64,000 nt of DNA from NCBI GenBank assembly GCA_973895155.1, contig OZ316895.1, positions 18,237,880 through 18,301,879 on the forward strand. The letters run 5' to 3'. This DNA is from Marsupella aquatica. Lineage: Eukaryota; Plantae; Marchantiophyta. A model generated the notes under the pieces. That model was not told the origin of the DNA, made no database searches, and saw only the letters and a list, made by a program, of their open reading frames with translations. Both the position numbers and the translations under genes were made by a program. Within the stretch, counting starts at the first letter, position 1, and each line of letters begins with the position of its first letter. This document shows, piece by piece, positions 10,775 through 63,550 of this stretch.

Positions 10775-12949
10775 GAAGGAGCCACCTTGTATTCCATTAT
10801 GCCGTCTCGTTCATATGGAGGTCGTCCGCACTCTTCAAAGGAATAGTCAATCAATCGAGAAGCTGAAGGACTCCTTCAGGACATCTGGGTACAATTCGTC
10901 CATAGGCATGCGGTTTTTTGTCCAACCTTCCAACGCCAAAGGTGCTCCACAGTTGTGTACAGATGAAATTAGGAGCACCTGGGATCCGATTTGGGTTGCG
11001 GAGAACCAATTGTTTGAAGCCAAATGTGAAGCAGACCCCGCTTTCTTGGTCCTCAAGGACAAAATGTTCTCAGTTTTTGATGGGAATCATCGACTATTTT
11101 CGTGGACACAAGTTACTAGTGAGAGTCCAGAGAATCCAAAGTATCATCCTCGAGTGCAATGCACAATCTTCAAGGGGGACAAGGAATCTATCATCGAGAT
11201 TGAAGCAGCGATGCACATTGTGAACAAATGAGTTGTCTCTCACCAGTGATTGAAACTCTCAAATTTGTTGGTTTTTGTCTGTGAATTCTATGTTCTTTCT
11301 GGTTTAAGGGTCTATGTTAGCGCCAGGCGCTATTTCTAAAATGCTGAATTTCACAGGATGGGGCAAGCAGTTGTAGAGTCTTCTTGGATTCTGGACACGG
11401 ACAGAATTAGGAGGATTTTGGCACATGATCTTGAATATTATAAACCCATCATAGACGAAGCAAATTATGCCAAATTTGAGAAGACTCAGAAAGGGACCCA
11501 AAAAGGTTCTTGGTTTACTAAGAAGATGCCAATGGAGGCCTTGGTCTATATCCTGTGTGAGAATAAGATCAAGTCCTACTCGCAGCAGTTCTAGGTGATG
11601 AAGACCCAGGCAAGCAATTCCGGTGCACCGTGGTCTGTCGAAGAGACCAGTCTTTGTCACAATCAGATGATGAAGGAAGCAACTAAGGAGTGGACTGTGA
11701 AAACTCCAAAGCTCACTTCCTTGCTGAGCCCAAAGTTTGAAGATTTCATGGACACTTGTGCCGAAATGTATAGTTTTACTGATCGGCTGAAATGCGAGAA
11801 GGTCCCTGATGCCGTATTCTACACGATGGATAGAGCTCGCTTGTTCACTGCCAATTTGGCATTAGATCCAAAGCTGCAAAGTACACTTCTCGTTGCTCAT
11901 TGTACTCCCAACTTACGGAAATAGTTTTTTCATCCCTTTGGCATTTCTGATGACCCCGTCAAGCAGTGGTGTCACACCTGGCATGTTTGGAATACAATTG
12001 AGGGGATAGCCACTGCTCTCTTAGATGCGTCTTTGAACAAAGTTATGGCTTCATGTACAGAACAACGTCTTTCAACACTGGTCGGAGAGGTCATGACATT
12101 TGAGAAGTTGAGGGAAGTGATTTTAGAGGATTTTAGAAAGTACGGTGATTCCATAAGGGCCAAGTTCTTCAACAACATTTGGGAATCCAAGTACGCTGAT
12201 AAGGAGGATTTGAGTGATGTCAACCGCAAGATAGCAAAGAGATATTTGTATCAATATTACATGAAAATGGAGAGGAGTGACCCTTCCTATTTTTGGGCCT
12301 ATCCTAGTGCCTTCCAAAAGTGGGCCGTTGTAATTTTGAGGTCTAAAGCGTCTGGGGACTTTCTTGGGTACTCGATGTACCCAGCCGAAGGGAAGTTTCC
12401 CCCAAGAAAGATGACAAACTGGGAGGTTTTGCACTGTCCATGGTATCTTGACACGGACAAGTGGAGTTCCCCATTTGATGATACGGAGAAGGATGCTTTC
12501 CAGAAGTTATCGAAGAATATAGTTCCAAGAAATATTTTGTCGGAGATGAAGCAAGCGACCAATGAAGAGATAGATCGATCGGCCATAGAGCTACAAAGAA
12601 TTTGCGAGACCTGAGTCATCCAAGTTGCAAGGAGTCGGAAACCCAAAGCGAAAGCCAAGCAAGAAACAACCCCAAGTGGATCTCATAAAGAGACCCGAAA
12701 GAGTGACTTCCTATGTTTGTTTGTCTATTTCTGCCTAGTTGTCAAAGCTTAATGTTGGCTAGCGCCCGGTGCTATTATTAACCACAATTTTGTTTGTTAG
12801 CAGGGTCTCAAAAATCAGACGCGGGGTTGGTTTCTGGTAATACTGGAACTGCAACACCAGAGCCCTCTCGTGAAATTAGTGTCAAGGGATGAGGAGCCGC
12901 CTAAAGGGTCGGCAACGCCTGAGGATGTGAGTGTTCCACCCGTGGATAA
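10775..12949 (+). pseudogene. Element C copy 1: internal fragment of the spliced ParB-like/methyltransferase-like gene (ParB-like and middle domains)
   Basis: ORFs 10815-11231, 11358-11594, 11595-11924 and 12033-12614 align with 60206-62473. FSVFDGNHRL motif; two T-rich introns ending in AG (near 11356 and 12803), each containing the palindrome. Confidence 0.8.
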
Positions 12950-13247
12950 CAAGAATAGTGCGTCCTATGAAAGAAAGAAAACGGGTGGCCCAAGCAGAAA
13001 GTCAAGAACTAATCTTGTCAAGACAGAAGGTGTGGAGTTGCGAGGAAGAAAGGTCCCATCCCATAGGCGCACCAAGGTATCTCTGAATTTCCCCTTTCCC
13101 GCTGATCTTGCAACCAGTGTTAACCAGCCATTCCAGAATCTCCTCCAACGCAAGTGGAATGACAGTAGACTTACGTAAGTTGAGCCGAGCACAAGATGCA
13201 AGTTCGTAACAAGCAATTGCTTCCGTGACCTTATTGAAATCTTCTTC
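12950..13247 (-). pseudogene. LINE-2 ORF2 RT continuation, 3'-truncated
   Basis: Minus strand reads EEDFNKVTEAIACYELASCARLNLRKSTVIPLALEE...YLGAPMG...FCLDKI. This continues FADDLGLFIPAS from 33912-33950 and aligns with LINE-1 ORF2. Confidence 0.85.
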
Positions 13248-13626
13248 CTTGGAATGGTAGCCATAAATAAATCATTTCAGTTCCCCCGTGAAAAGCCCCA
13301 CGGGGAGGGCGCACAAACAGACCAGGTTTCCCGGGAGGTAGCCAAGAAAGAACAAAGGGCCAAACCTCAAAAAACCAACCCAAATCCACCTAAGGCAAGG
13401 AATTACTCTCCCCGGAGACACCTACCAGCAACCCAAACCCACACCACACAAACTCACAACCAGCTTGAGGGCATCAGTGCCCCCAGAACCAAACATCCAT
13501 TGGTCTCAACGTTCAAACATCACCGCAAAATCAAAGTCACCCAGCGGAAGTGAAACTGATCCCCCCGCTGCCAAGCCAGCTCCTTCAAAGCCCATCGATA
13601 CATGATTTGGCGCGCAGTAGGCGAGT

Positions 13627-17457: not shown

Positions 17458-17513
17458 CCTCCCACTGTGCCCTTGTTAGTGCATAGCACAGCCACACACC
17501 TCCTCTGTCTCTC

Positions 17514-17950: not shown

Positions 17951-19342
17951 TGTGGTATGGGTGTCCCTGCAATTTTTTCTGGAAACTTGTTTATTTTTAG
18001 CATATCACAAGATTTACTTACACTTTAGACACCTTCCGGCCAACATTTACTTGTTCTGGACACTTATAGAAATATTTGACATCTCCGGCTTTCCTGACGA
18101 TTCCTAGTGTACTTTGCCCGACGCTGTGACCAGCGCCCGTTTCTTTTACTCAAGACGCTGCGGAAGCGTCCAACCTCCTCATGACGCTTTTGGCAGTGCC
18201 CGACCGCCACCAAGACTCTATGAGGATTTCGACCGACGCTGTGGAAAGCGTCAGCTTCAACACACGACGCTGTGAGCAGCGTCCACCCTAGTATTGACGC
18301 TGTGAGCAGTGTGAGCAGCGTCCGTTGGTTTTACTTAAGACGCTTCTAGCAGCGTCCAGATTCTCCCGACGCTTCTAGCAGCGTCCGCTCAACACTTAGT
18401 TTTTGAAGTAGATTACTAGTAAAGTAGTATTCTACCACCCTTGTTGAAGTACTTATGCTGTGCTTCTCCCTTGTTTAGTTTTAAGCTTGGAAAGGCACGA
18501 CTGTTCTTACCTCCTCCATTTTAGGATTCCAGCACTTATAAGACAGAGTAGAATGCTCATTTGAAGTAGAGAGAAATAGAGTTAATACTGTATTCAGAAT
18601 TGAGTCTTCTGAATAGTTTTCTCCTCCTTCCATTGTAACAAGGCATGCTGTGAGTGTTTTGTATGGAAGTAAAGCTATATTGATTGAAGTTAAGATTGAA
18701 TTCAAGAGATTCCTGTGGTGATTGAATTCAGTTGCAGATTTCTGAAACTCGTATTGAATTCACTGCTAGGCTTGCTTGCAGAGTCGGGATTCGCTAGCCA
18801 ATTCAAGAATAGTTAATGATAAATGAGAAGTAAATTCTGATTCTCAGAGTAGTTAGTACTGTTGCTTTGATTCTGGAATATGGTTTAGAGTTTGACTGAA
18901 TTGCGTATCGCTGATGTCAAACCATGTTGACGGCATTTTAAATCATATCATTCATTTGCAATCAGAAAGCTTCTGCTTCATCAGATTGAGAATTCCATTA
19001 TCATTAACCTTTGTGTTTTGAAGAGTGAGATGGATGAATTATGAGATAGATTTCATGTCTATACTGAGCCCAAATCCTTTCTGAAGGAGTGGCAGTAGCA
19101 GCTTGTAGTCTCTAAATCCTTACTCATTTCTTCTCTAATTCATAAATCAGAAGTTCAGTTACTTTGTTGTTTGTTTATTCGATTTTTTTTTATTGAGAAG
19201 TGAAGTCAACATAGAGCTCAAGACTCTAAATCACTCGGAGTGATAAAAGTTATACAATTCATTCTGAAATCTGTTCTTAAAGGGATCGAAACCCTGGTTT
19301 TAGGTGAGGAGAGTCACTTTTGATACTTAGCACTATACGACA
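17951..19342 (+). repeat. Element B 5' LTR
   Basis: TGTGGTAT...ATACGACA; direct repeat of 29773-31164 with no difference noticed by eye. Confidence 0.96.
18120..18385. repeat. Cluster of about 8 spaced palindromes GACGCT-N5/6-AGCGTC in the B LTR (also 29942-30207)
   Basis: Examples: GACGCTGTGGAAAGCGTC at 18235, GACGCTGTGAGCAGCGTC at 18266, GACGCTTCTAGCAGCGTC at 18339 and 18368. Confidence 0.85.
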
Positions 19343-19348
19343 TCTTTT

Positions 19349-19366
19349 TGGCGCCGCTGCCGGGGA
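19349..19366 (+). promoter_or_regulatory. Primer-binding site of element B, tRNA-Asp type
   Basis: TGGCGCCGCTGCCGGGGA just after the LTR; near match to the Athila PBS TGGCGCCGTTGCCGGGGA. Confidence 0.85.
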
Positions 19367-20560
19367 ACGAATTTAAGATTGAATTGACGTACAGGCAGTG
19401 TATGCCAGAAGGAGCTAGACGGGAGAGGAATTCACGTTCTACTATAATTGTGAAGATGCGTCATCACTCCAGTTAAAAAGATGAAGAGCTTCCATTTCGA
19501 GGTGATGCCGTACTCTATCCAAAGCGCCCCGGAAGCTCTCTTAAGAGTATTGGAAAAATTTGTGGTGCCAAACTTAAGAGAAGAAACCGCCCTCCCACCA
19601 GAAAAGGCCTCACAGAGAGGAGCTGTTGCTCGTCAAGTTGCTTTGGAGATAGTCGAAGACACCAAAGACACTTTGAGTGACAAGTGAAGTTATTCTAACG
19701 TTGCTCGGGACGTATGATTTGTAAAATTGTCCAACCATCCTGGTTCGTGTGACCGATGCCACCTATCCGATCTTTGGGAACATTAAGAATTAGGAATTTG
19801 AGGAATCGTTATGTTAATTCTTGGGTTCTGAGCCTGAGAGGGAGGAATGGCATACATTGGTTAACTATCACCTGGTGGGAAGATGAAAGTTTGCATTTAG
19901 TAATATTAAGGCTGAATGGTAGGATCACACAGGAGTGATATTTAGTCATTTCCATTCGGGAGTTAGCGGAAAGAATCATGCACCAGGAATTGCGTAGAAG
20001 ATTAGGAAGGAGTTAGACGTCTGATTAGTAGGATGGCCTAGTGTAGCGTACCATGTGGTAAAGAAATTTCAGGGTGAAGGAAGTCGGAGATTATGGGGAA
20101 CGCCCGGTTCCAGTAATCGCCACCGTAAAGGAGATAAGGAAGGACGCCGCGAAGAGCGTCCAATGCGATTCGTCCCAGAAGATTCCGCAAGTCAGGACGC
20201 TTCGAGTAGCGTCCGATCCCAGTGGACGCTGTGAGCAGCGTCCGGTGGAATCTGTGACGAACCAACGTGCGCGACGCTTCTGGTGTGCCTTTCCGCGTCT
20301 CAACCTGAAGGACGCACCAGAGAAAACGAGGTTTTAGAATCTCGGCTGGTCACTGAAGGGAAGTATTAGCTACGGGATAGCAAGGGGGAGGAATCATGCA
20401 AGGGATGTTGAACGACGCTACGGGAAGTCACTTTGAGGAAGCAGGTTCATATCTCCCGGAGTGGGGTGATAACGTCGCACCTAAATGGTGACTCCTTGCA
20501 TAAAGACTCCTGAGGAGCGGGTCTGGTGTCTCAAAATCACCCGTGCTTGGAGAATGAGGG

Positions 20561-21823
20561 ATGTCTGAGGGAGATCCACCGAATAAAAGAAAACCTACCA
20601 AGACCTCCAGTAATTCGGATGCTGCAAAATTAGTAGTGACCCCTCGCACATTGTTACCCGAATTCCAGTCACCAGGAGCACCTGCACCGGGTAGTGTGTG
20701 GAAACAAGTGGGATCTATTCAAGAGGCAAGTGGCTCTTTGGAAAGGCCCACGTCGACCCGACCCCTGTTTGTAAATCTTCGTTCAGGTCCAAAACTTATT
20801 GGTTCTCAAAAGACCAAGCTCCGCCAGCAGACAGTACGTTCGGTGAACCAAATTGACTCTGGTGTGGATAGTACCACTGAGAGGGCCTTATCTCATACCG
20901 AAGGAAGAAATTTGGGTTTGCCCGAGAATACAGTTGCAGAATCGCTGGCCCAAGATAATTCTGTCGATCTTTCACAATTGGATAATCCAGAACCACTGAG
21001 TGAAGCCGGTGGTTCGTCTTCTAGTGAGACAAGCAGCAGTTCAGGCTTGGGCAGCCCAAACCCATTTGCTACCCGATCAGCTCTTCCTTTCGTTACCCTC
21101 CTAGCTCCAACCACGATGGCTCGAAATAATGTGAGGTACGACCGGTTCTTCGGTACTTCCAAGGAGGATGCAGAGGTGTATTTGAAAGAATTTGAAGCTG
21201 CAGCTGCATCCAATGGACAGAGTCAAGACGCTGAAAAAGCCAATCTGTTTGGTGGTCTAATGAAAAAGGGTGCTCAGAAATGGTATGACCGTTTTCCGGA
21301 CAAGCAGGATTGGGGGAAATTGAAGGCTGCTTTCTTGGCCAAATATAAAGAAGAAGGAGCAGCTGCGCGTGCCTTTGCCCGAATCTCACATCTGCACATG
21401 AAGAAACATGGGTCTGTGAGGAAATATGCCGACAAATTATTGGATTTGGTAGATCAATATAATCCAGCTACCTCGAAATCTACTATCAAGGACTGGTTTA
21501 TTAACGGTTTACCCTCCAGGATTGCTCGTTACGTGAGACGAGAAGGTGGCACCACTTTGGAAGAAGTACAAGAGGCAGCCCAGAAGTACGTAGACTCGGA
21601 GATTTCAGAGAGAAAACGAGTTAAGAAGGACCTGAAGAAAGACAAAAGAAAGAAGAAGAAAACGTCCAGGTCTAAATCTGACTCGGAGACGGAATCAAGT
21701 GAAAGTAGCACTAGTGAGGAGGACGAGAGTACAAATTCGAGCACTAGTGATAGTTCAAGCTCAAGTTCCGACTCAGAATCCGTTGCTCCTAAAAAAAAAG
21801 AAATCCTCTGTAAAAGGGAATAA
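20561..21823 (+). CDS. gag: Element B gag, N-terminal part; frame changes at an A9 run (21791-21799)
   Basis: Gag core FFGTSKEDAEVYLKEFE...WFINGLP and a K/S-rich tract. Removing one A fuses it to the next ORF. Confidence 0.85.
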   Translation: MSEGDPPNKRKPTKTSSNSDAAKLVVTPRTLLPEFQSPGAPAPGSVWKQVGSIQEASGSLERPTSTRPLFVNLRSGPKLIGSQKTKLRQQTVRSVNQIDSGVDSTTERALSHTEGRNLGLPENTVAESLAQDNSVDLSQLDNPEPLSEAGGSSSSETSSSSGLGSPNPFATRSALPFVTLLAPTTMARNNVRYDRFFGTSKEDAEVYLKEFEAAAASNGQSQDAEKANLFGGLMKKGAQKWYDRFPDKQDWGKLKAAFLAKYKEEGAAARAFARISHLHMKKHGSVRKYADKLLDLVDQYNPATSKSTIKDWFINGLPSRIARYVRREGGTTLEEVQEAAQKYVDSEISERKRVKKDLKKDKRKKKKTSRSKSDSETESSESSTSEEDESTNSSTSDSSSSSSDSESVAPKKKEILCKRE

Positions 21824-23615
21824 TAAAGTTCCCAACCAGAAGAAGATGGATCGCATGATGGAAGAACTCTCTGGCCAATTGTCCAAGTTGAATGTCAATA
21901 TCGCCGCGGTAAAACCAGTACGAAGGTTGCCTGCTCCCATGAGAATGAACGTATGGTGCACCCGATGCAGTCAGCAGGGCCATTACCCGAACGAGTGCCC
22001 CACATTACGAACCCCGGTGAATTATGTAGATGGTCAAGAAGAGGCTGAGGAGTATGAGTACGATCCCACGTATACCGTCCAAACAGCACCCCCTGGACAG
22101 TATTTCCCACCACCTCCTGCTTCCAGACCGACTTGGGGACCACCTAAGCCCACTTTCAATAAACCAACGTCAAGACCACCCATGGGACCCCCGGGAGGAT
22201 ACCCACCACGAGGAATGCCGCGTCAAAAAGGGGCTTGTTGGAATTGTGGCCAACCTGATCATTATTCACCCCAGTGCCCTTATCCCAAACAGGAGGTGGG
22301 GTATACACCTGTCTGTGGGAACTGTGGAAAAGAAGGACACTTACCGGTGGAATGCCCGAATCCGGCTAAGCCTAGGCTGATGGTTCGATTTGCTCAAGAG
22401 CCAGTTAAAGAAGCAAGTCGACCTGAAGCCAAGATTCGGATGGTTTATTCTGAAGAGATGGAGCAATGCAGCTTCATTCAACATATGGATGTAAATCGGG
22501 TGGAATTAAAGCCAGATTCACTTTTTCATCAACCAGTATCCGGGGTGGTGCCTGATGTCTTGGTAAGTCATTTAGTGAAACCTGAAGTAGTTGGTATGCC
22601 GAATGATCGAGTTCAGAATCGGGATAAAGTTCTGACTAATATTTACGCAACTACTCGTTCGAAGAAAAAGGAGACCAAGAAGCACGAGCATCAGAAGGTC
22701 GCGAAAGCTCCCAAGGATGAAGGGCGCAAGCCATGTAAGGAAGGCCTCGACAAAGAAGACGACCCTGCTTATGACCGATATGACCCAAAATACTTCTTGC
22801 CCGACATCTCTTTGGAAGTGAAAGACCATCTGGAAGAGCTAGTTAAGGAGCAAGTGCAATCTCCTAACCCACCAGTAGTAGTCAAAGCTAAAGAGCCACT
22901 GAAAAATCCAGGTTATGATATTGTTGAAGATGTCAAGAATCATCCTGCACATATCACCATTGGGGAATTATTACAGGACAATCCGGTTTATAGGCGACAG
23001 CTGAGGAGCCTCCTTGCAGGAAAACGGAGGAAGAAGAAGTTACCTTCTGTGGATGTGCTACGAACAGAGTGGGAGGACAAAGGACCGATGGAAATTGAGG
23101 TTCAAATCCAGGGGTGTGTCATTCGGAGAGTTCCTGTGGATGGAGGAGCCAGCGTTAATCTGATTACACAGTCAGCAGCATTTAATTTGGGTTTCACTAA
23201 GTTTGAGCCCACTCCCAAGATTTTGCGCATGGCGGATCAGTCTCGTGTGGTACCCATAGGGAAGCTGACCAAAGTAGAAACTTTGATTGCTGGTGTCCCT
23301 TTTCTGTTGGATTATGTGGTTATTAATCCGGAAATACCATCCAGCTTTCCTGTTTTGTTAGGCCGACCATGGTTGTATAAGGCTCAAGTTCAGGTTAATT
23401 GGCAATCTCAAGAGCTTTCATTTGGGAAGCCTAAGGTGACTGTTAGTTGGGTTCCGGAACCACATTTTGGAGAAACACAAACAGATGATGGGTACACCTC
23501 GGATTTTTCGACCTCTTCGCTAGTCCTGCAGCCATTGGAATTTGAACTGGAGGAAGTTCGTTACTTGGAAGTTTATCTGTCTGATGCTCCCATAAAACCA
23601 ACTAGGCCCTCCTGA
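21699..23615 (+). CDS. Element B gag C-terminus (three CCHC knuckles) and aspartic protease
   Basis: Knuckles CTRCSQQGHYPNEC, CWNCGQPDHYSPQC and CGNCGKEGHLPVEC; protease VPVDGGASVNLI...LLGRPWL. Confidence 0.9.
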   Translation: MKVALVRRTRVQIRALVIVQAQVPTQNPLLLKKKKSSVKGNNKVPNQKKMDRMMEELSGQLSKLNVNIAAVKPVRRLPAPMRMNVWCTRCSQQGHYPNECPTLRTPVNYVDGQEEAEEYEYDPTYTVQTAPPGQYFPPPPASRPTWGPPKPTFNKPTSRPPMGPPGGYPPRGMPRQKGACWNCGQPDHYSPQCPYPKQEVGYTPVCGNCGKEGHLPVECPNPAKPRLMVRFAQEPVKEASRPEAKIRMVYSEEMEQCSFIQHMDVNRVELKPDSLFHQPVSGVVPDVLVSHLVKPEVVGMPNDRVQNRDKVLTNIYATTRSKKKETKKHEHQKVAKAPKDEGRKPCKEGLDKEDDPAYDRYDPKYFLPDISLEVKDHLEELVKEQVQSPNPPVVVKAKEPLKNPGYDIVEDVKNHPAHITIGELLQDNPVYRRQLRSLLAGKRRKKKLPSVDVLRTEWEDKGPMEIEVQIQGCVIRRVPVDGGASVNLITQSAAFNLGFTKFEPTPKILRMADQSRVVPIGKLTKVETLIAGVPFLLDYVVINPEIPSSFPVLLGRPWLYKAQVQVNWQSQELSFGKPKVTVSWVPEPHFGETQTDDGYTSDFSTSSLVLQPLEFELEEVRYLEVYLSDAPIKPTRPS

Positions 23616-26588
23616 CAATTAACTTTATCATCGGAAGTGGGCCCAGCAGCAGACGAACCTCCTAATACTGAGGCTAATAGGGATTTACACCATGATATGG
23701 GAGTGTCAGCTACCCTTGAGCCATTTGCACCAGAAGTATCCAAACTTGGACTTCAGCCGGCAAACCTCACGGATGGAATTGTGGATCCAAAAGCTTGTCA
23801 GAAAATCGAAATTGAGCCAGGCAAGTTTTTGAATATTGGTAAGCATATCGAAGGAGAGCTACGGGAACAGTATATCAGTTTATTAACCCAGTATAAAGAT
23901 GTCTTTGCCTGGAGTCATTCTGATTTAAAAGGTATCCATCCACATTTGGGCGAACATCGTATTGACCTTATGGAAGGAGCAGTACCTGTCCGACAGAGAC
24001 AGTACCGTTTGAATCCCAAATATTCCATCCTGGTTAAAGACGAGTTGGACAAGCTCACGACTGCTGGATTTATCTACCCGGTCTTGAGTAGTGAATGGGT
24101 CTCACCAATTGTCATTGTCCCCAAAAAGCCGGGACCCGATGGTAAAACGAAAATTCGCGTTTGTCAAGACTTCCGGAAGTTGAATGCTGCCACTCGGAAA
24201 GATCATTATCCTTTGCCATTTATTGATCTGGTACTTGATTCAGTGGCCTTGCATGAGTTATACAGTTTTTTAGATGGGTACTCTGGTTATAACCAGGTGT
24301 CCATTCGGAAGGAGGATCGCGACAAGACTACGTTCACCACCGACTGGGGTACATATGCATTTACCATGATGCCTTTTGGGCTGTGTAATGCCCCGGGTAC
24401 TTTTCAGCGCATTATGATGATTATTTTTCAAGAATATTTGCGGCATTTCATGGAGATTTTTATTGACGACTTTTGTGTTTACGGGTCAGCGGCTGAACAC
24501 CTCGTCCATTTGGAGAAGACATTTCAGAAGTGTAGAGAGGCTCAGTTGTGTCTTCATCCAGAAAAGTGCTTTATTGGTATGAAGGAGGGAATTTTGTTAG
24601 GCCATGTTATTTCACAACGCGGCATTGAGGTTGATACAGAGAAGGTTAGAGTAATTATGGAGTTGCAACCACCGACCGATTTAAAGCAGCTTCGTGCTTT
24701 TCTGGGACATGTGGGGTATTATCGTCGGTTCATTTATAAACATGCTAATATTGCCTTACCCTTAACCCAACTGTTAAAAAGTGATGTGGAATATACATGG
24801 AATGAGGAGCGGCAGCAAGCATTCCAGTTGCTCAAGGATCGGTTAATCTCTGCACCTATTTTGTCACCCCCAGATTGGACTAAGAAGTTTCATGTCTTCA
24901 TTGACTCTTCTGCGTTCTGCATTGGAGCTAATCTCAGTCAGAAGGATGTGGAAAACCGTGACCATCCAATTTACTATGCCAGCCGCCAAATGAGTGCAGC
25001 CGAGAAAAACTACTCCGTCACTGAACGGGAAGCTTTGGCCATCGTCTTTGCGTGTAAGAAATTTCGTCACTATTTGTTGGGGTATCAGGTTACTTTTCAC
25101 ACTGATCATAATTCCTTAAAATATTTGGTTAACCAAGTGGATCTCTCAGGACGAGTAGCCCGCTGGGTTTTACTACTCCAAGAATTTGATTATGAAGTTC
25201 ATGTCCGACCTGGCAAACATCATGAGAATGCAGACTTCCTATCTCGGTTACCTGGTCCGGAGAATCAGCATAATCTCTCCGATGAATTTCCTGACGAGCA
25301 TTTGTGGCACATTGAAGGGGAGTCTTCTCGATATTTTAATATTGTGCACATGCTGCTTCATGGAACGTTCCCTGAAGGCTTTAATGCGGAAGAACGAGCT
25401 GTCTTTGCTCATAAGGTGGGTCCCTATACCATTATTCGGGGCACTTTGTTTAAACAAGGTCCTGATCAACAATTGCGACGTTGTCTAGAGGATAGGGAAC
25501 TTCCCCAAGTAATTGAAGCTTTACATTCAGGAGAAACCGGTGGGCATTATGCAGTGAATACCACAGTTAAGAAAATTTTGGATGCTGGATACTGGTGGCC
25601 TACTATGCATCGAGATACTTACAATTTTATTAAGACCTGTGATCCCTGTCAAAGGATCGGGAAGCCCACTGCTAGTTCCAAATGGCCTCTTACGCCTATC
25701 CTTCCGTTGGCACCATTTGAGAAATGGGGGATTGATTTTATTGGCCCAATTTCTCCAGCAGCTCGGAAAAGCCGAAGCAAATATATTATTCTGGCCACTG
25801 ATTATGCCACCAAATGGGTAGAGGCGAAAGCTACTCGCAAGAATGATGCTATAACCGCAGCTGCATTTCTCTTTGAGCACATTATCACCCGGTTTGGTTG
25901 TCCTTTGGAGTTGGTAAGCGATAGGGGTTTGCATTTTCTTAACTCAACTATTGAGTTAATCACTGACCTTTATCTTATCAAGCATCGCAAAACTACTCCT
26001 TACAACCCCCGAGCTAATGGCTTAACCGAGAGAGCTAATGGCATTATGGGCAAGATTCTGAATAAAATGGTAGAATCTCACAAGACAGATTGGGATGTGA
26101 AGCTCCATTCTGCATTATGGGCTTACCGCACCGCTGAGAAGATTACAACTCTTCACACCCCCTTCTATCTGACCTATGGCCTGAATAGTATTATTCCAAT
26201 AGAATTTTCGTTACCAACGGAACGTATCTTGGTACCACACCGACTCTCTCCTTCAGATAGTCTCTCACATCGGTTTTCCAATATTGTTAAATTAGAAGAA
26301 GTTAGACTTTTAGCATTAGACCATACAGTCACCATTCAGAACCAGCGTAAACTTGCTTATGATAAGAAGCTGCGCGTAGTGCAGTTAGATGTTGGTGATT
26401 TAGCATTAGTCTTTGATTCTCGTTATATGCTATTTCCTGGGAAACTTCATACTCATTGGATTGGTCCTTACCGAGTTACACACATCTGGGATAATGGTTC
26501 AGTTTCATTGACTACCTTAGATGGTCACCCACTTAACACTAGAATCAATGGGTTTAGGATTAAACGGTACTATGAGTCTTCCATTTAG
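23616..26588 (+). CDS. pol: Element B pol: RT, RNase H and integrase; intact and in frame with the upstream TGA
   Basis: RT: LDGYSGYNQ, MPFGLCNAP, FIDDF. RNase H: FIDSS, TEREAL, TDH. Integrase: HHCC, WGIDF, SDRG, ERAN, GPY. Confidence 0.96.
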   Translation, partial: QLTLSSEVGPAADEPPNTEANRDLHHDMGVSATLEPFAPEVSKLGLQPANLTDGIVDPKACQKIEIEPGKFLNIGKHIEGELREQYISLLTQYKDVFAWSHSDLKGIHPHLGEHRIDLMEGAVPVRQRQYRLNPKYSILVKDELDKLTTAGFIYPVLSSEWVSPIVIVPKKPGPDGKTKIRVCQDFRKLNAATRKDHYPLPFIDLVLDSVALHELYSFLDGYSGYNQVSIRKEDRDKTTFTTDWGTYAFTMMPFGLCNAPGTFQRIMMIIFQEYLRHFMEIFIDDFCVYGSAAEHLVHLEKTFQKCREAQLCLHPEKCFIGMKEGILLGHVISQRGIEVDTEKVRVIMELQPPTDLKQLRAFLGHVGYYRRFIYKHANIALPLTQLLKSDVEYTWNEERQQAFQLLKDRLISAPILSPPDWTKKFHVFIDSSAFCIGANLSQKDVENRDHPIYYASRQMSAAEKNYSVTEREALAIVFACKKFRHYLLGYQVTFHTDHNSLKYLVNQVDLSGRVARWVLLLQEFDYEVHVRPGKHHENADFLSRLPGPENQHNLSDEFPDEHLWHIEGESSRYFNIVHMLLHGTFPEGFNAEERAVFAHKVGPYTIIRGTLFKQGPDQQLRRCLEDRELPQVIEALHSGETGGHYAVNTTVKKILDAGYWWPTMHRDTYNFIKTCDPCQRIGKPTASSKWPLTPILPLAPFEKWGIDFIGPISPAARKSRSKYIILATDYATKWVEAKATRKNDAITAAAFLFEHIITRFGCPLELVSDRGLHFLNSTIELITDLYLIKHRKTTPYNPRANGLTERANGIMGKILNKMVESHKTDWDVKLHSALWAYRTAEKITTLHTPFYLTYGLNSIIPIEFSLPTERILVPHRLSPSDSLSHRFSNIVKLEEVRLLALDHTVTIQNQRKLAYDKKLRVVQLDVGDLALVFDSRYMLFPGKLHTHWIGPYRVTHIWDNGSVSLTTLDGHPLNTRINGFRIKRYYESSI

Positions 26589-26610
26589 AATTCCACCTGG
26601 GACAGGTTGC

Positions 26611-26626
26611 AATTTAAGTGGAGGGC
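26611..26626 (+). promoter_or_regulatory. Internal duplicate polypurine tract after pol
   Basis: AATTTAAGTGGAGGGC, identical to 29755-29770. Confidence 0.75.
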
Positions 26627-26971
26627 GGTAGTTATACTTAGTTAGAATTAGTGACCCTCCCTAGTAAGTATTCGGCATATTTTTTTAATTTTTTTTAGTT
26701 ACTTTCAGTTTTTACATTGGACGCTGTGAAAAGCGTCCATTGTAACTCGACACTGGGGAAGCGTCCACTTAGTTTACAAAGGACGTTGTGCAGAGGTCCG
26801 CTTTTGTATTAGTTCAGTTGCATGAGACGCTGTGAGCCGATGACTAGGCATCTTGTACAATGGCGGATTGCGACAGCTCAACGGGACGCTGAGGAGTAAG
26901 CAGTCGCGCTTCGCCCTAGTTCACTATGGAACACGATTCTCACTGAGCTTACGGAGCTAACAAGTCACGCG

Positions 26972-29206: not shown

Positions 29207-29218
29207 AGAACACCATTT

Positions 29219-29695
29219 ATGAGAGATATCAAACGGTGTTGTCATTTATATGTATATAAGCCGTTACTTTTGCAGCATCCTGCAATTGTTTCCTTCTTTC
29301 TCCTTCGAATTGATATTTATCTGCTCATGTGGGACATCAAAGCTACTATGGATTGTTGGAATTCTTTACCCCGTGCTTTCCAACATTCCTTTGAAGGCAA
29401 GATCAAACTGGGAGGACATGCTATTCAACACTTTGTTATTGATCCAGGCTCTCGAATTAATTTCCTCTCCCACAGACTGTGCCAGCAATTTGTTCATCAA
29501 GAAGTACAACCGATATCTGCTCAGATATCAATCGATGGACGAATCATTAATCTTTGGGGAAGAGTTAAAGGAGTCCCAATACAGATCGGAGAAGAATTCC
29601 ATGACCTCGATTTTTATATTCTGGATTCGGATATCTCCCAACTCCCGTCAATGATTTTGAGCACTACTTGGATTATTAAGCCAGAATATTATTAA
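29219..29695 (+). CDS. Second retropepsin-like (aspartic protease fold) ORF of element B
   Basis: FVIDPGSRINFLS...GRVKGVPIQIGE...LDFYILD...MILSTTWI parallels the element's own protease. Confidence 0.65.
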   Translation: MRDIKRCCHLYVYKPLLLQHPAIVSFFLLRIDIYLLMWDIKATMDCWNSLPRAFQHSFEGKIKLGGHAIQHFVIDPGSRINFLSHRLCQQFVHQEVQPISAQISIDGRIINLWGRVKGVPIQIGEEFHDLDFYILDSDISQLPSMILSTTWIIKPEYY

Positions 29696-29754
29696 TGAAG
29701 AACATGTCACTCGCTTCTGATTCAATTCGGTCATGTCTTGTGGGGACACGGCGA

Positions 29755-29770
29755 AATTTAAGTGGAGGGC
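29755..29770 (+). promoter_or_regulatory. Element B polypurine tract
   Basis: AAGTGGAGGGC ends 2 nt before the TG of the 3' LTR. Confidence 0.85.
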
Positions 29771-29772
29771 TA

Positions 29773-44133: not shown

Positions 44134-44556
44134 TGTCCAAGGAACCGTTTAAAGCAGTCTGAAAAAACTAGTTTCAACAATGTCTTAAGGGACTTACATT
44201 TACTTTAATATCGTGTATTTTTGTTTTCTTAATATGTTTCAATTCGTGTTATGAGGCTCTACTTAACATTAATTCAGTTAATTTTATTTCTTCCTTTCAT
44301 TCTTCCTTCCTTTTAAGCTCTGATATAAAGTTCCTTAGGAAAATTAAATAAACAGGTCATTTTAAACTAAAGGTTTTAGTAAATCACTCTCATTCATCCA
44401 TTGATAACTTTTAAACAAAGCATAGCATGTTATAAGTGTGTTTAAGACCCATTCTTTATTTCCTTGTTGAGATTCACTCTTCATCTTTAGGTTTCCATGT
44501 ACTATTCATCTTTGCTTTCATTCATATCTGGTTTTTCTGAATTCAAAACTTTGATA

Positions 44557-52613: not shown

Positions 52614-52618
52614 GGCGC

Positions 52619-55356: not shown

Positions 55357-56260
55357 CTCTCGTTTATTCAAAGATCTCTAAAGTTTAGAGATTACAAACA
55401 ATAATTTTATGTCCTTTGCAGTTTGGTCATTCTTCAGCTGGGGTTTCAGCCTCGGTTCAGATCAACTCAGGTCATTCAATTGGGTCAGGTTTGGCCAGTC
55501 GTGCTTTCAAGTTCCAATTCTAATGGGGTTGTCCTTTGGAATTAGTTTCTTCCAGGATTCGGGGTTCATTCATGATTGCTTCCAGAGTTCCTCAAACTCA
55601 TCCTTGACTCTTTCTTTGAGTTAGGGATCTTTTTTATTTCATGTCTTTAAATTTCTCCATTTTTCACTTTCCTTATCCACTATAGTACAATTCAGTTGTC
55701 CTTGACTGAATAATTTGGATCTTTCTTTTCCTGCTTCTTGTTCTCTGCTGCCAATTTGCCTTGCTTCACCCAAAAAAAGCCAAAACCTCATTAACAACGT
55801 CGTTTCTTGAGTTACCCCTCTTTCGAGTTTAGCTTTCTTCAGCAGCTGAGCACCTCCGCAGCACCACAAAATCCATTACCAACAATCCCTCTCTTCCCGT
55901 TCTATCACTTCCGGTCCTACTTCTTCAGAATTCCTCACGTGCTTCCGCCTTCACCCGAAGTTCCGTTTCCAAATTCCAATTTGTTCGGCCACATCTCTCT
56001 TCTTCCCCACTCGAATTCCTATCGAAAGCTCTCATTTTTTCCTGCTTCATTCCTTCACTTTCTAATCCCCACCTGTGAATCGCCTCTCCTTTTCATGTCA
56101 CTTGGAGCCTCATTGCCCTTTTCATTCGAAAATGAGACCCACAGCGATCAACAACTTTCAGCTCCAAACGGCTATCTTCCATTTGGCAGCACATCACTTT
56201 CTCAATTTCTTCCTAAATTTCACACGTCATGTAGTCAAAGATCAGTCGTTACTCTCACTT
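55357..56260 (-). repeat. Element D 5' LTR remnant: PBS-proximal end deleted, other side cut by element C
   Basis: Homology to the 3' LTR begins at CTCTC near 55357 and stops after CTCTCACTT at 56260. Confidence 0.85.
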
Positions 56261-58634
56261 GGGGTATTTACAAACGACAGGAACCAGGAAACAGTAACTA
56301 TTTGCTGTTACTGTTACAAGGAGAAATGGAAAAAACAACATGGGATTGAGCTCCATTATTTGGTCAAGAAGTTAAAAAAACACCATCAATAAATCCCATT
56401 TTCAGTCATTTTCAATACCACCATCCAATTGTGAAGGAAAGTAGGGGCCATTAGAATAAAGGTGTTGCCAAAAACCGGTGATGGCCAGCGCACAACGCTA
56501 GTGTGCCGGCAGGGAAGGGCCAAAATTTAGGTATTCATAAAATAATGAAAAAGATAGAGATTCTACGTAACGTCAATCGAGAAGAGAACAGTAAACTTAA
56601 CGGCCATTAGAAAAAGGCGTTGCCAAAACATGCGGATATTAGCAACACCCAGCGCTAGTATGCTGGAAGAGATTTCCGTCACATCAATCGAGAAGTGAAC
56701 ACAGGAAACTCAATTTGAAGCATTTCCAACAAAGAGAGGCAATGGCAGACGTTGAATATTTTTAGTGATGGGCACTACATTAAATGTTGGACCTCAAGAA
56801 ATCAATGTCAGCGCCTAAACACGGAACACAATGACCATAGGCAACGCTCGGCGCTAGCTCAAATCTAGGAATCAATGAATGACCATGAAAGAACAAGAGA
56901 GCCGATCCAAAAGTGCATTCCTTACTTCCAAAATTGGTCAAAACATATAACCGGTATTACACCATCCGCAGATCATCTTCAAAGCAACCCATGGCATAAC
57001 ATGAACATAAGCAACGCTCGGCGCTAGCTTAAATCTAGCTATCTTAAATGTAAACTAAAACTGGACATCTGTTACTAAAAGCACCCCCACCACGAGCACT
57101 AGAATCTGCCAAAGCCCGCCGAAGCCCGCCCTGGCTCGTATGTGCTTTATCTCGACCTGAGCCGCACATAACAGGGCCGCTGATCCAAAATGGGCCAAAG
57201 ATGTCGCCGGAAATACATGAACTTTGAATCACCCATAGAAGAAATCCCACGGTCCAAGACGAACAAAAGCAGCGCTCGGTGCTAGCTTAAATGGCAAGCC
57301 TATGGCCACTGAAGCTTGTGTCACTAAAACCATCTTCATCGTGAATAACTTTAGCTTTGTGATTGGCAGTCGTCGTCAATGCCCGCCCTGGCACATCTGT
57401 GGTTTTGCTTGAAACCTAGACCCCTGAGCCGCACATAAGAAGAGGAGGGGCACCAAAACTCCAAACTCTGATTCTCGGGGTCTGGATCATTTGTATCTAG
57501 GAAGTCAACACGTCCCAGTCACTCTTGTACTCGTCGCTCAATAGGCTGAATACCATCAGCAGGAATGACAGAATGAAACAAAAACCGATCAACAACTGCG
57601 AGCGGAGTGTCCCGGTCATTAATCCAAGGTAAGTTCCTCTCCCTGGGACTAATCGCCTCATCATAAGGAAGAGCAAAATGATTCCGGAAGGTTGAGGTCT
57701 TGCTGGATGTGTCACCATGAACGGACTTGAAAGAGCTAAAGTGACTCTCGTCCGGTTGAACTCTGGAAGGAGCGAAGAAGGCAAGCATCTCCTCCAAAGA
57801 CATGATCTCCTTCTTCTCCATTTGGTGGGCACTGTTAAACGCAATCGAGGCTAATGACAAGACCGGTGTTGTTGAAATGACTCGACTTCGAGAGAGGTTG
57901 TGTCTGAAATAACTTGCAAGAGTGACCCAATGGAGAGTTTAGGTTCGGAGATCAGCAAAAATGTATCACAAAAAGGTTCAACGAAAAAAGGACCGTTGAG
58001 AAAGAGATGACTGTTCCGGTAGCGACAAAATATGCGGGGCCAAGGAACGGACGGAGGATTCAAAATTCGCAATTAGACAAATAGACGTTTAGGGAGCGCC
58101 CGACGCTAGTAAGGGAAATGAGGAATTTAATCCATTTTATTATCAATGTAATGTAAACAAATCATATCTAATATAATAAATACATGTATTAAGATAACAG
58201 CGCCCGGCGCTGGTAAAATCTAAGCCGCAAAAACGCTTTAAGAATTGGACGATTCCGATTCGGAGCTCTGTGACCTCTCGATAGAGACTACCTCATCATC
58301 TACATACTTGCTCCTACAAACGTCATCTACATAAGGATTTCGGACAAATTTTCTATCAACTCCTCTCCGTAGGCGAAGACCTTTGTTTTCCCAACAAAGA
58401 GTCCTTTGATTGTCTTCCATTCTTGCAGCATTCTCAACGTAAGAGGGTAAAACAAATGGTTTCTCCGGAGTGACAATTTCAAAACGAGCTACTTTTCTTC
58501 TGAGATTGAAGCGTCTTCTCGTATTTCATTCGGACCTGGGTGAGAACAGAAGTTCGTCAACCGATTGTATGAATGGATATCACAAAAGCATGAAGGAACT
58601 GGAAAGGAGAAAGAAGCTTACGAGTTTCAGAACA

Positions 58635-61600
58635 TTATTGGGAAGAGTCATCGCTGTCACTCTGGCCAGCGGATTGTTCCTGACCCTTCCCCTCAGGTGT
58701 GCCATCCTCATCTTCGTCTGCTGTACCACCACTTGACTCATCGTCAGAGTCAAAATTGAGTACAGAACGGAGCTTGTTCCTCTTTTTCTTTTCGGGTGGC
58801 TGAATTGGGGGTGGCAAAGTTTCAACTTCCTTTGGAGAAAGTAGATCTAAGAACACCTTGGAACCAGTCTCAACAAAATCTTTCCTATTCTCCACTCCAA
58901 TTACAAACCTCCCAGAATAGTCTCTAGCTACAAAAGAGCTACTCGACCCCACTGTCCAATCCATGAAAATATCCCTAGGACGAGTGATGAGCTCAATCAC
59001 AGATTGCATGAATCCAACCGACAAACGGGCATTTCTAGCAAATTCCATCTCAGGTGTTGGATCGACTTTGAGAGAGGGAAGTCCAATTAAATTTGTTATT
59101 GAGGGATCTTCTGTGGCAGACAGAGGTCTAAACCTTGAGTCTTTTGGCACCTTCCCTTTTTCAGACACTCGAGAGAAGACGTCCAGCCTCAGCGTGAAGA
59201 TCTATAATATAACCCAAGCAAGGTATGTCAATGGATGCATTCGTAGACATTTTTTTAACGGCAAACCAGATGTCACGATGAGAAATTTACCTGTCGATCA
59301 GTCTTCGGCGCGTACATTGGAACTGACATGACAACATTGTGTGACGAGATGCAATGAAACTTCTTTGAATCTTGACAAGCCAATATAACCTGAGACATCG
59401 GATCGTACTCCTCGTTATGTAAAATGGCCAGCATTCCGTCATCAGATAAAAATGGATCCATTCCACGAAAGAAAGATGTGGCCAAAGTGTGGTCAGGGAC
59501 ATTCCATTTAGGAACTTTTTTGTCTAGCAGAGATGGTTTAAGTCCTGTCGGAAGGTAGATAAAACCCGCGTGGACCCCAAATGATCTCTCCTTTCCACCA
59601 TGCACAATGCCCTTCTCTCGAAAGCCAGACTTCATGAGATCCTTTCCCCACTTCTCTACACCATTCACCCAGTCAGGCTTCTCCCCTTTGTTAAACATTG
59701 AGTCGTAGAATTCTGAGATGCTAGATTCAACAAGGCAATGCCTTGAAAGTCTACTCTTGAAGTCCCCAACTTCGTGTTGAAGACCTACAGCAGCAGCACT
59801 TTCTCGAGAGGAAGATCCACCTTCAATGGTCCTTTTTCTCTTCTTCCTTGTACTGGTCGCATCCACCGGAGCGATCGCCTTCCCTTTGTCGGTGGGAGTA
59901 ATTGGATCGGATGGTGCTCCGGTATTGGCTTCAGAAGCCTCTGGGGTGGCATCTATCTTTGTATCTCCGCTCCCCACGGCGTCCAACTTTCTCCTTGTTC
60001 AAATGGATGCCAACGTGATATCCGTCAATATAGAGACAACGACAATGCTAACGCCCAACGTTGGCCAAACTATCATAAGACTTGGCCTTAAATATACACC
60101 TTTTCGAGTAATAAATACCAATTCAGTTTCTAAAAAATTGACTCTCATAACAGCGCCTGGCGCTAACAATGTAACAGATATTGAATGTCAGAGCAGCGCC
60201 GTGCGCTAACAATGTGACATATATTGAATTCCATACCAGCATCGGGCGCTAACCAAAGGAAACAAATTATACTTACGTTTTTTCCCAGATCTTGTTGATT
60301 CACTTGGGGCCGCAGTATCTGCTTTTGCTTTGGCGCGAGGCTTCCTGCTTCGGTCAACATGAACAATTGTTGTCTCGCATATTGTTTGCAATTCTGTTGT
60401 GGATTGATCCACATCATCCAGAAGCCCCTGCTTCATGTTAGAAACAACATTGACTGGGATCTGGGACTTAGACAGCTTATGGAAAGCATCCTTTTCTCTG
60501 TGATCAAAGGGCGAGTCCCATCTATCTGTATCTAGGTACCATGGACAATGGGTTCTCTCCCATTCACTCAAAGGTCTTGCTGGGAAAATTCCCTCGGCAG
60601 GATACATAGAATACAATTCAGCTAAAGAATTACTCTCCGGTATGACAGTCCACTTGAGGAAGGCGGCGGGATACGCCCAGAAGTAATCAGGTTTGGTAGC
60701 CTCCATGTGGATGTAAAAACGGTAGAGATACCGTTTTGCTTGCTTTTGGTTCTTCAAAGAGTAATCCTCTTTGTCAGGATACTTCGAGGGCCACATTGTA
60801 TTAAAAAACTTACCCTTGACAGAGTCACCGTATTTCCTAAAATCATTCGTGACTATGTCAATGAGAGATTCAAATGATTCACATGCCCAATCTTGTAAAC
60901 GATTCACGGGAATGGTTTGTTGGACCTCTCGTAAAGCACATTGCAACATCCCCACCGCAATCCCTTCTACATTATTCCATGTAATCCAAGTGTGACACCA
61001 CTGTTTTACTGGATCATCATTGACGCTATTCGGATGGAAGAATTGTCTCTGGAGCTCTGGATTGCAATGTGCTACAAGCAAAGTACTTTGTAGCTTGGCG
61101 TCAAGAGTCGAGTAAAAAGCCTGGCCCGGTCCATGGTACACAACACGGTATCTGGCTTCTTCTCCCGCTTATTCCTCTCCGTGACAGCATACATTTCTGC
61201 GCACGTAGATAGAAAGTCCTCAAACTCTGGACTCAACAAAGGAGTGATTTTCGAGGTCTTAACTGCCCATTCCTTGGTTGCTTCCTTCATCATAACAGCA
61301 TGCCTTCTGGAAACCTCCTCGACCGACCAAGGGGTACCGAGGGCCGCAGCGGACTCCATGTCAATCTTGAACTGGTTCGAATACAACTTAATCTTATCCT
61401 GACATAGAATGTACTAAAGAGCCTCCTGAGGCATCTTCTTTGTGTACCAGGATCCTTTTCGCGTCTTCATCCTGATATGCTCAAACTTCTTGTAATTTGC
61501 AGGGTCGATGAGCTTACTATAGTACTCCAGGTCGTGCATCAAGATCCGCTTAATTCGATCGGCGTCTAGGATCTAGGAGGGTTCCACAACTGCTTGTCCT

Positions 61601-62473
61601 AGCCTGAAATAAAAGAACAAAATGAGAACATATAAGCAGCGCCGGGCGCTCGCAAAACATGGCCTCGGAAAGTTATGCTAGAAAGAATAAACAATTCACA
61701 ATGACTCACGAAGTTATGCACAAAAGAGTATCTTACTAGTTAACGGTGTGCATAGCCACTTTGATTTCTATCAGCGAACCCTTGTCACCATTGAAAACAA
61801 TACAAAGCACACGCAAGTGGTACTTTGGGTTTTCGAGACTCTCTTGAGTGACAAGAGTCCACGAGTAAAGCCTATGGTTCCCGTCAAAAATTGAGAACAT
61901 TTTGTCCTTCAAAACCAGAAAATCTGGGTCGGCAGCACATTCTTCCTCGAGTTTCTCATTCTCAGATGTCCATATTGGATCCCAACTCTCACAAATTTCT
62001 TGAGTACAAGTGAGAAGCGCTCCCTCAACATTGGTAGGCTGAACGTAAAACCTCATTCCAATCGAAGAATTGTATCCCATGCTACGGAAAGAGTCTTTTA
62101 GCTTGTCGATGGAAGAACTGTCTTTCTATAGAGTTCGGACAACCTCCATATGCACCAATCGACATAGTGGAATTCGTGGAGGCTCTTTGTCAAACCCTCT
62201 GAAATCCTTCCCAAATGACATGACATGTTTCGAAATAAGATCCGTCTCGGAAAACGAAACATCTTGAATCGCAAATGTGTCAAGATTCTCCATCTTCTTT
62301 CTCGCTGGTTTGGCAAACGAAATACTTGAGATTGGAACAAGCGATGCGGTGGACCTCGTTACTCGACGCGTATACACTGAACCAGAGAATGAAGACTCAG
62401 AAGACTCGCAATACCCACGATCCTGATCCCCAACCACACTATACACCCTCGACAAGGAGGGGATTGCATCCAT
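58635..62473 (-). pseudogene. Four-exon gene: ParB/Srx-like N-domain, helical domain, linker, and beta-class N4/N6 DNA-methyltransferase-like C-domain; carries nonsense changes and a frameshift
   Basis: Exons approx. 62473-61737, 61603-60277, ~59995-59291 and 59201-58635, with GT-AG introns (acceptor of intron 2 uncertain). Motifs FSIFDGNHRL; GFIYLPTG...PKWN...FLSDDGMLAI; VIELITRPRDIFMDWTVGSSSSFVA...GRFVIGVE. Confidence 0.7.
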
Positions 62474-62789
62474 TGTCTTTACGATGAAAGGTGTATGAAC
62501 GGAATCCTCACGACTGATTACCAGTTCTCTGTACCATATTAACAGTTGGGTCCGTATTATATCCTATCAATGAGCGTTATTCCCCTCTTTGTAATCGGTT
62601 GGAGAGACGTTACTCATTGCGAATGACGAGATTCAATTTTATTTATCCGTGACAGAAAGCGACAATTTAGAAATTGCGATAAGTATTAATGTGAATTACG
62701 CTAAAATGTTGTCGTGGTCATCATGCTAAACATTAGTTACCGTTAAATGTTACCGTTGTCTCAGCACCTTTCAGACAAACATGCAATGC

Positions 62790-63550
62790 CAACGTCGGGC
62801 GCTAACGAATAAGAGACTACCAAATTCAAGAACTTATTGGTGAACAAATGCTAGCGCCCGGCGCTAGCCATTTGAATAATTTCATTAACATTCTTTTTTA
62901 GTAACAGATATTGTCAACAAACTTCCAAATGTACCTGTTTCACCCGTAGTAACTAAACTTTACTTGATATTATGATATTAAGTATATTGTATCAATACTA
63001 GCGCCTGGCGCTAGTAACAATTTATTGTATTTGAGCTTAAAAATGTTTGTGATGCAATATTTTGAAAAAACATTGCATCAATATTTTGTGTGTGATTATG
63101 CTAGCGCCAGGCGCTAGTCACAAGACTTTTCAAATTATGTCATTGTTATTCCAATGGCTTTTAGGTAGCGCCCGACGCTAATGCAATGGACGAGTATAAC
63201 CACCGTGACAGCAAATAGTAAATAGATTTGCTGTTATGAGCAAATTTTTTGCTCGTACGAGCAAAAATTTACTCATATGAGGCTTTCAATTACTCATAGC
63301 AGAAAATCTGTTTACTCATACGAGAAACTATTTACTTGTACAAGTTTTATAGGTTATTCAAAGTTCAAAAAAATGGCTCGATGTTAAAAAATAACAACCA
63401 TATAAGCGCTCTCTGAAATGCTAACATAATTGGGCCCACCATTCAATGATAATAAACGGGCAATATAAAGGTCATTATAAGAAGACGCGCTTTATTTAAC
63501 AATCAATATATTTGCTATCTGTTTCAAATTTTGGCTAGCGCCAGGCGCTA
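62790..63550. repeat. Intergenic cluster of TAGCGCCNGGCGCTA palindromes
   Basis: Copies at 62790, 62850 (19-bp), 62996 (21-bp), 63101, 63166 and 63536. Confidence 0.9.

Follow-up and report, generated by a model that had tools for sequence, protein, structure and literature searches.

Family-specific palindromes in the non-coding DNA of a ParB-fold-encoding transposon from the liverwort Marsupella aquatica

Background

What recognizes a palindrome that recurs in the introns and spacers of a transposon? The question is raised by a 64,000 nt stretch of contig OZ316895.1 from Marsupella aquatica (the window; positions are counted from its first letter). It is a nest of long interspersed nuclear elements (LINE) and Gypsy elements that also contains element C, a multi-copy DNA transposon. 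An earlier reading of the letters (the original prediction) reported about 19 copies of TAGCGCC-N-GGCGCTA in element C. The element has an accessory gene whose protein begins with a ParB/Srx fold. On balance we lean toward the palindrome being the recognition site of this protein, which would bind it as a dimer, by way of its helical domain, and would act on the chromatin of the element as the Arabidopsis protein VANC does.

Occurrence and placement of the palindrome

The window was scanned with the 15-mer TAGCGCC-N-GGCGCTA and with a 13-bp core, AGCGCCNGGCGCT, each at ≤2 and ≤3 mismatches. The 15-mer has 12 matches at ≤2 mismatches where 0.02 are expected, and 0 of 100 shuffles reach 12. There are 5 perfect copies and 17 copies at ≤3 mismatches; those at 56486 and 56643 have 4 mismatches. 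Every site listed in the original prediction holds a copy. The listed starts are exact for 15 of 19, and the other four were off by 1–3 bases (true starts 58094, 62852, 62999 and 63102). In 11 of the 19 copies position 1 of the 15-mer is C, and in 7 it is T; what is conserved is therefore the 13-bp core.

At ≤2 mismatches all 17 matches to the core are within element C copies 1 and 3. At ≤3 mismatches there are 29 matches, 19 inside element C and 10 outside. Copy 3 has 17 sites, and no exon overlaps any of them; the gene model is coding over 4,005 of 7,740 bp, and the probability of this placement by chance is about 4e-6. Four window sites were marked as coding by tblastn cover, only because the alignments ran through introns. 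The proposed confinement to the non-coding DNA of element C is therefore upheld. The terminal 200 bp of the element has no copy. An origin of the motif as the end of an independent miniature inverted-repeat transposable element is ruled out, as the sites have unrelated flanks with neither common ends nor duplications.

The copies of element C in the window are dead, and C>T and G>A changes are eroding their motifs. These changes represent 18 of 20 deviations in the core and just 18 of 34 overall. This type of decay would fit ordinary host 5-methylcytosine on a dead copy.

Conservation of the palindrome

The motif appears to be kept under selection. Copies 1 and 3 differ at synonymous sites with pS 0.82–0.87 and at non-synonymous sites with pN 0.19–0.29 (three blocks), and synonymous sites are saturated. 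Both introns common to the two copies keep the motif. The claim that equivalent introns retain it while the rest has diverged holds for both, with the reservation that intron 1 keeps one other short similar stretch.

Family contigs from three public sequencing runs were compared with the window at 62760–63200. There are 24 places that differ at a share of ≥30%, 22 of them among 346 flank positions and two among 70 motif positions. Both differences at motif positions restore the consensus. Counted as 0/70 versus 22/346, the comparison favors conservation of the motif over its flanks with p = 0.015, or p = 0.20 if the two reversions are taken as variation, and it is biased in favor of the motif because contigs often end there, where differences are filtered.

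Palindromes of related elements

A metagenome scan gave 103 relatives among 232 stretches, from which 80 loci were kept, 52 of them non-redundant. The window motif is present in 0 of the 80 loci. A blind dyad search was made in the 39 non-redundant loci of ≥1.9 kb, with 21 resampled controls. Strong arrays are present in three loci, L001, L007 and L033 (log10 P of -30, -30 and -17), compared with -24 for element C and -5.8 at best in the controls. Moderate signals (log10 P -6 to -10) are found in eight loci, and some of these are probably unrelated repeats. The other loci gave no signal.

The three strong arrays have different palindromes: GGGCTT-N6-AAGCCC in L001 (16 times), AGGTGCC-N6-GGCACCT in L007 (17 times) and GTATTGGCGG-N2-CCGCCAATAC in L033 (7–8 times). 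The expectation that related families carry palindromes of their own is thus supported. None of the arrays is in detected coding sequence, where the coding cover of these loci is incomplete; they are upstream of the ParB exon or in introns. The arms are more conserved than spacers and flanks. When sites in L007 are chosen by the left arm alone, the right arm is present at 17 of 18. L008, which is sister to L007, has the same motif.

A 22-bp dyad pattern was taken from the AT-rich loci L026, L046, L034 and L035. It has 43 matches in 11 of the 52 loci and 0 in resampled DNA. Positions 2 and 21, which are free in the pattern, read T/A in 20 matches, A/T in 19 and other in 4; therefore both arms changed together. 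The T/A form is one clade on the ParB tree. For 16 motif-bearing rows in seven motif classes, the tree requires 6 changes, the fewest possible (shuffled mean 10.1, 0/200). L001 is the locus nearest to the window copies on this tree, yet it has a different motif. The palindromes are family-specific and stay symmetric.

Other repeats are found in some of these loci. L007 (2119–5752) has a second, non-palindromic motif, CATACTTAGCCGCT, which occurs 15 times alongside the dyad. Dyad-like repeats beside the main motif are present in the upstream region of L023 and L024 (CAAGCT-N2-AGCTTG, 7 times in L024) and in L027 (positions 6748–7932, CTCTTGA-N6-TCAAGAG, 5 times).

The accessory gene and its protein

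The accessory gene of copy 3 runs from 62476 to 58635 on the minus strand and has four exons; its roughly 1,100 codons are interrupted by stops and a frameshift. The encoded order is a ParB/Srx fold, a helical domain and a beta-class methyltransferase-like domain, in a gene that is decayed. Both liverworts and ferns have homologues. For the first domain, 80 of 321 candidates are homologous, and Calypogeia fissa, Riccia sorocarpa and Adiantum are represented among them.

The structure model of the ParB domain is confident, with a predicted local distance difference test (pLDDT) value of 92. Its best fold matches are KorB (Z 7.7, root-mean-square deviation 3.0, 95 residues aligned), PadC (Z 7.0) and sulfiredoxin (Srx, Z 6.8), and the eight best VIA rows are all ParB/Srx-type chains, with Z from 7.7 to 5.2. 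The top Foldseek rows are Noc, ParB, KorB and Srx, all with E ≥0.012. Pfam gives no ParB match for this domain. A DGNHR segment is invariant in 54 of 54 aligned rows (52 of the 80 first-domain matches and two window copies), a sample that comes from a word-based search favoring DGNHR. We take DGNHR to be the equivalent of the nucleotide-binding GxxR arginine patch of ParB. The ParB alignment matches 0 of 86 viral contigs and 0 of 29 prokaryote contigs.

The middle domain has 78 homologues and a confident model. The 456-aa model of homologue P0081, searched whole, gives no clear fold match. The middle exon as query finds 0 of 1,841 candidates among longer proteins, its alignment 0 of 125 stretches in the metagenome scan, and an atlas search with the exon gives scores ≤0.87 only.

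Exon 4 has weak but concordant matches to Pfam N6_N4_Mtase (E = 0.002, below cut-off), PHROG 3008 (E = 2e-4) and PRK13699 (E = 1e-4). By these weak matches the half that binds S-adenosylmethionine (SAM) is C-terminal to the catalytic half, as in beta-class N4C/N6A methyltransferases. The canonical beta-class catalytic motif is (D/N/S)PP(Y/F/W). It is present in 0 of nine domains, which have YLPT, DYPE, DIPE, DVPR, NVPG, NIPR, EVLG, DLPT and HLPT. The segment, assigned by position without a profile match, reads D/N-x-P-x-N or FIYLPT in 9 of 9 sequences, and a PDB profile search with the catalytic half returned nothing relevant. The domain may be atypical or inactive and act as a scaffold or reader.

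A small coding segment after the accessory gene has an LPxYVE-like stretch (LPSYVE-like in the window, 58242–58535), which is also found in L011 (4121–4486), L032, L049 and L068. A fern protein, P0184 from Adiantum capillus-veneris (1,387 aa), combines ParB-like, middle and methyltransferase-like parts with a C-terminal NIF/FCP1 phosphatase domain; the joint is either a real fusion or a merged annotation.

Element C and its probable transposase

Element C extends from an end at 56261 to beyond 64000, and just this one end is inside the window (Table 1). Comparison of 55500–64000 with contigs from four public runs gave 126 divergent contigs in one run and 1,996–2,972 in the other three. The flanks ahead of 56261 are heterogeneous, with loose contig ends (14 and 24 contigs, agreement 0.4). 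An alternative continuation behind 56298 is common to 33–42 contigs, and this second sequence matches the first ~38 bp. Position 56261 is the end of a multi-copy element because of these heterogeneous flanks and the second sequence with the same first ~38 bp. A 98% match between two copies resembling long terminal repeats (LTRs) breaks off at 56260. No clear terminal inverted repeat pair, with or without a target duplication, is present in 19 long loci. Mutator-like elements (MULEs) produce target-site duplications of 8–11 bp (PMC6446971). Their transposases are DDE enzymes that have a D/CxxH signature and end in a SWIM finger.

The transposase is probably Mutator-like, as judged from short motifs. 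The window closes with 348 bp that code for a SWIM-type finger, which is similar by tblastn to a transposase-like gene of L030 (E = 6e-6), and a transposase-like gene adjoins the ParB gene in 10 of 19 loci of ≥8 kb. GFMxDxAxAN, CFFHW and SWIM-like motifs are present in L066, L077, L030 and the window. We assume these to be MULE transposase signatures, with no profile in confirmation: Pfam has no MULE or SWIM match for the transposase segment of the window or its relatives, and a PDB profile search with the transposase N-terminus gave nothing relevant. A Pfam match to Anthrax_toxA (E = 0.19) was treated as chance.

An exact 12-mer at 56297–56308, near the element end, recurs inverted at 63208–63219 in the spacer before the transposase tail. 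It may be a site of the transposase, or an old inner end.

Table 1. Features of element C in the window
Feature	Position	Strand	Basis or remark
Copy 3 end; probable terminal inverted repeat (first ~38 bp)	56261–56298	.	Contig ends, LTR-like match
Five decayed motif copies in subterminal repeat units (56486, 56643, 56842, 57012, 57270)	56486–57284	.	2–3 core mismatches
Two motif copies downstream of accessory gene	58094–58212	.	Motif scan
Small conserved coding segment after methyltransferase-like gene	58242–58535	-	By-eye similarity
Exon 4: SAM-binding half of beta-class amino-methyltransferase-like domain, acidic tail, stop	58635–59201	-	Weak profile matches
Exon 3 (5' boundary uncertain): low-complexity linker and catalytic-half-like segment, non-canonical motif	59291–60003	-	
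Three motif copies in 43-bp tandem, intron 2 (60151, 60194, 60237)	60151–60251	.	
Exon 2: helical middle domain, no known fold; stops and frameshift	60277–61603	-	
Motif in intron 1 (61604–61736)	61637–61651	.	
Exon 1: Ser-rich N-terminus and ParB/Srx-fold domain (DGNHR); one in-frame stop	61737–62476	-	
Six motif copies in spacer between transposase tail and ParB gene (62790, 62852, 62999, 63102, 63166, 63536)	62790–63550	.	
C-terminal SWIM-type finger of probable Mutator-like transposase, cut by window edge	63653–64000	-	tblastn to L030
Copy 1: fragment of diverged sister family (ParB exon, middle exon); motif in intron 1 (11318) and intron 2 (12760)	10752–12950	+	
Copy 2: exon 1 fragment only, no motif	43768–44136	+	

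A proposed binder of the palindrome and its rivals

In the mechanism that we favor, the ParB-fold accessory protein would act as a dimer on the family-specific palindrome. The binder would be the ParB protein rather than the transposase, and its helical middle domain would read the palindrome sequence. The protein would load at the palindromes and spread as ParB does at parS. Through this binding the element would recognize its own copies, and the bound protein would mark or shield it against host silencing, by anti-silencing or activation as for VANC. A more elaborate version is a nuclear parS/ParB-like system in the transposons of liverworts, ferns and other early land plants, in which a nucleotide-gated dimer loads at family-specific palindromes, slides along the element, and brings with it a repurposed amino-methyltransferase fold by which self DNA is marked or shielded, while protein and palindrome change together from family to family. 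We regard this version as possible but doubtful. The module may extend to algal transposons and to the DUF3723 proteins of fungal Starships.

Several observations weigh against recognition by the ParB-fold protein. The fold Z-scores of the ParB-domain model are under 8, and a fold search with the whole middle-domain model found neither a helix-turn-helix nor another fold that binds DNA. Just 3 of 39 loci have a strong and 8 of 39 a moderate signal in the blind search, and L011 has a nearly complete gene and no array in that search. The lower variation of the motif among family contigs depends on how reversions are counted and on a filter that favors the motif. Motif classes follow the ParB tree. 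This does not show co-evolution, because kin share labels: the tracking reflects shared descent only, a transposase would track the tree too, and the switch of both arms is one event. Finally, a Gypsy LTR element at 17951–31164 has no ParB domain and has its own dyad, GACGCT-N6-AGCGTC, 14 times, with a similar half-site, in both LTRs, the leader and the spacer before an extra open reading frame (ORF). An element without a ParB domain can therefore have a recurrent dyad as well.

The palindromes could instead be binding sites of the Mutator-like transposase, for synapsis or self-activation. Five copies are in subterminal repeat units, no more than about 1 kb from the element end, which is consistent with this, as is the linkage of a transposase-like gene to the ParB gene, and the AtMu1 transposase is described as activating cognate copies sequence-specifically (10.64898/2026.08.24.746577). 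We consider this explanation unlikely, since many sites are in accessory gene introns several kb from the end (the window, L001, L007, L026 and L046), the terminal 200 bp are free of the motif, and the inverted 12-mer may be the candidate site of the transposase. A second alternative is that the element gathered host transcription-factor sites to drive its own expression. The Gypsy dyad, with its near-identical half-site in an unrelated element, keeps this explanation alive, and a GGCGCC-like hexamer recurs in several family motifs. Motif and spacing differ among near relatives, e.g., L001 and the window copies, and the joint change of the two arms within one clade is more readily explained by a binder that the element itself encodes; a host factor is accordingly an improbable binder in our judgment.

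The original prediction gave CCNGG as the core and compared it with the sites of bacterial enzymes such as M.MvaI and M.BcnI, which produce N4-methylcytosine (4mC); in the corresponding model CCNGG would be the target of an active methyltransferase of this type that the element encodes. Neither the core nor the model is supported. CCNGG is unbroken in 9 of 19 copies and absent from the palindromes of relatives, and CCWGG/CCSGG occurs 204 times over the whole window and so gives no specificity. The gene does have a beta-class amino-methyltransferase-like half in which the acidic residue after the SAM-binding strand is retained, and eukaryotic 4mC enzymes are described for Marchantia and bdelloids (10.1101/2021.02.12.428880, PMC8885841). 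A canonical catalytic motif is present in none of the nine domains, and we regard the model as very improbable. The least probable explanation, by a little, is that the palindromes are RNA hairpins or neutral by-products of tandem duplication. Many copies do lie in tandem units, and any dyad folds as a short stem. Three introns that hold the motif gave folds no more stable than those of shuffled sequence (z -0.11 to -0.49), the central spacer is a single base, there are sites beyond the transcription unit and in flanks that are unrelated, and the arms are more conserved than the rest of the tandem units.

Relation to known systems

A self-binding ParB design has already been proposed for algal transposons. 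The Ectocarpus element Sola1-1_Ec32 has a 1,104-aa gene with ParB-like and N4C/N6A methyltransferase domains, for which self-binding and self-modification are proposed (PMC12477816). It is likened to element C by domain make-up, i.e., a transposon-borne gene with the same two domains and of similar size (about 1,100 aa here). It differs in its brown algal host and Sola transposase, and no mention of a palindrome was found in the accessible part of that paper. In Bostrychia, Plavaka elements have tandem inverted-repeat arrays beside the ParB-type gene PAG3, proposed as its binding sites (10.1101/2025.02.11.637652). Both systems have a ParB-type domain on a DNA transposon with inverted-repeat arrays by the gene. 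PAG3 is from a red alga and an EnSpm/Plavaka element, its ParB domain is fused to a 2OG oxygenase with the methylase on a separate gene, and no test of motif turnover was found in the available text.

In Arabidopsis, the short motifs that VANC binds are located in the introns and spacers of VANDAL elements (PMC5735166, PMC10398659). VANDAL elements are Mutator-like, as element C probably is, and they resemble it in having an accessory gene as well as motifs that are specific to the family, are placed in introns, spacers and ends, and have multiplied through tandem repeats. The trait of a family-specific motif gathered in non-coding regions, often by tandem repeats, is found in element C and its relatives. 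VANC motifs are described as 8–9 bp long and not palindromic, unlike the palindrome of element C. Binding and demethylation are shown for VANC, whereas element C is known here from sequence.

The bacterial ParB-parS, Noc-NBS and KorB-OB systems provide the mechanistic model. In the ParB-parS clamp a helix-turn-helix domain that binds DNA follows the N-terminal domain, and loading at the palindrome, with subsequent spreading, depends on CTP. Element C is similar to them in the N-terminal fold, the arginine-patch-like motif and the clustered palindromic sites. It differs in that no helix-turn-helix or ParA partner was found in element C, and in the large helical domain and methyltransferase-like fusion of its protein. 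MpDN4MT1 of Marchantia and N4CMT of bdelloid rotifers are host enzymes with shown 4mC activity and, like the element C protein, have a bacterial-type amino-methyltransferase fold in a eukaryote; the element C family differs in having no canonical catalytic motif, and the accessible text on those enzymes has no mention of ParB that we found. DUF3723 is described as a conserved cargo of giant fungal Starships (10.1101/2021.12.13.472469). A fern homologue, P0183 (Adiantum capillus-veneris, residues 120–473), compared with Ascomycota DUF3723 clusters gives values of 0.95–0.96 in language-model features, the one measure of this likeness, as Pfam has no DUF3723 match among the 54 ParB-domain members. 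The Starship DUF3723 may be a related ParB-type module, and is a lead only.

No report of such a system from land plants was found in the literature searched, which covered few subscription journals. Element C is a land-plant, probably Mutator-like variant of the proposed system, and its family-specific palindromes make the self-recognition hypothesis directly testable. With its relatives, the locus provides five or more land-plant candidates for a protein and its cognate site. Two sister families have sites that differ by one symmetric base pair, so that cognate and non-cognate binding can be compared directly. If recognition by the ParB-fold protein is correct, transposons would have an anti-silencing system that came from bacteria and arose independently of VANC and TnpA, and a sliding clamp would explain how a single protein can work across kilobases of the element. 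Such a system would also be a possible source of sequence-specific chromatin tools for bryophytes.

Other elements in the window

The Gypsy element at 17951–31164 has LTRs that are 100% identical and an extra 768-aa ORF at 26900–29206 without a Pfam match. Together with its dyad, this makes it a candidate for a second self-recognition system. In a second Gypsy-like element (45900–47000), ACTTTCGAAAGT occurs 7 times at ≤2 mismatches, which is marginal. Two element copies that are 94% identical are located at 35304–38945 and at 5146–8618 (minus strand) and have a 1,213-aa ORF without a convincing Pfam domain. A more diverged partial copy of this element is present at 447–2417 on the opposite strand.

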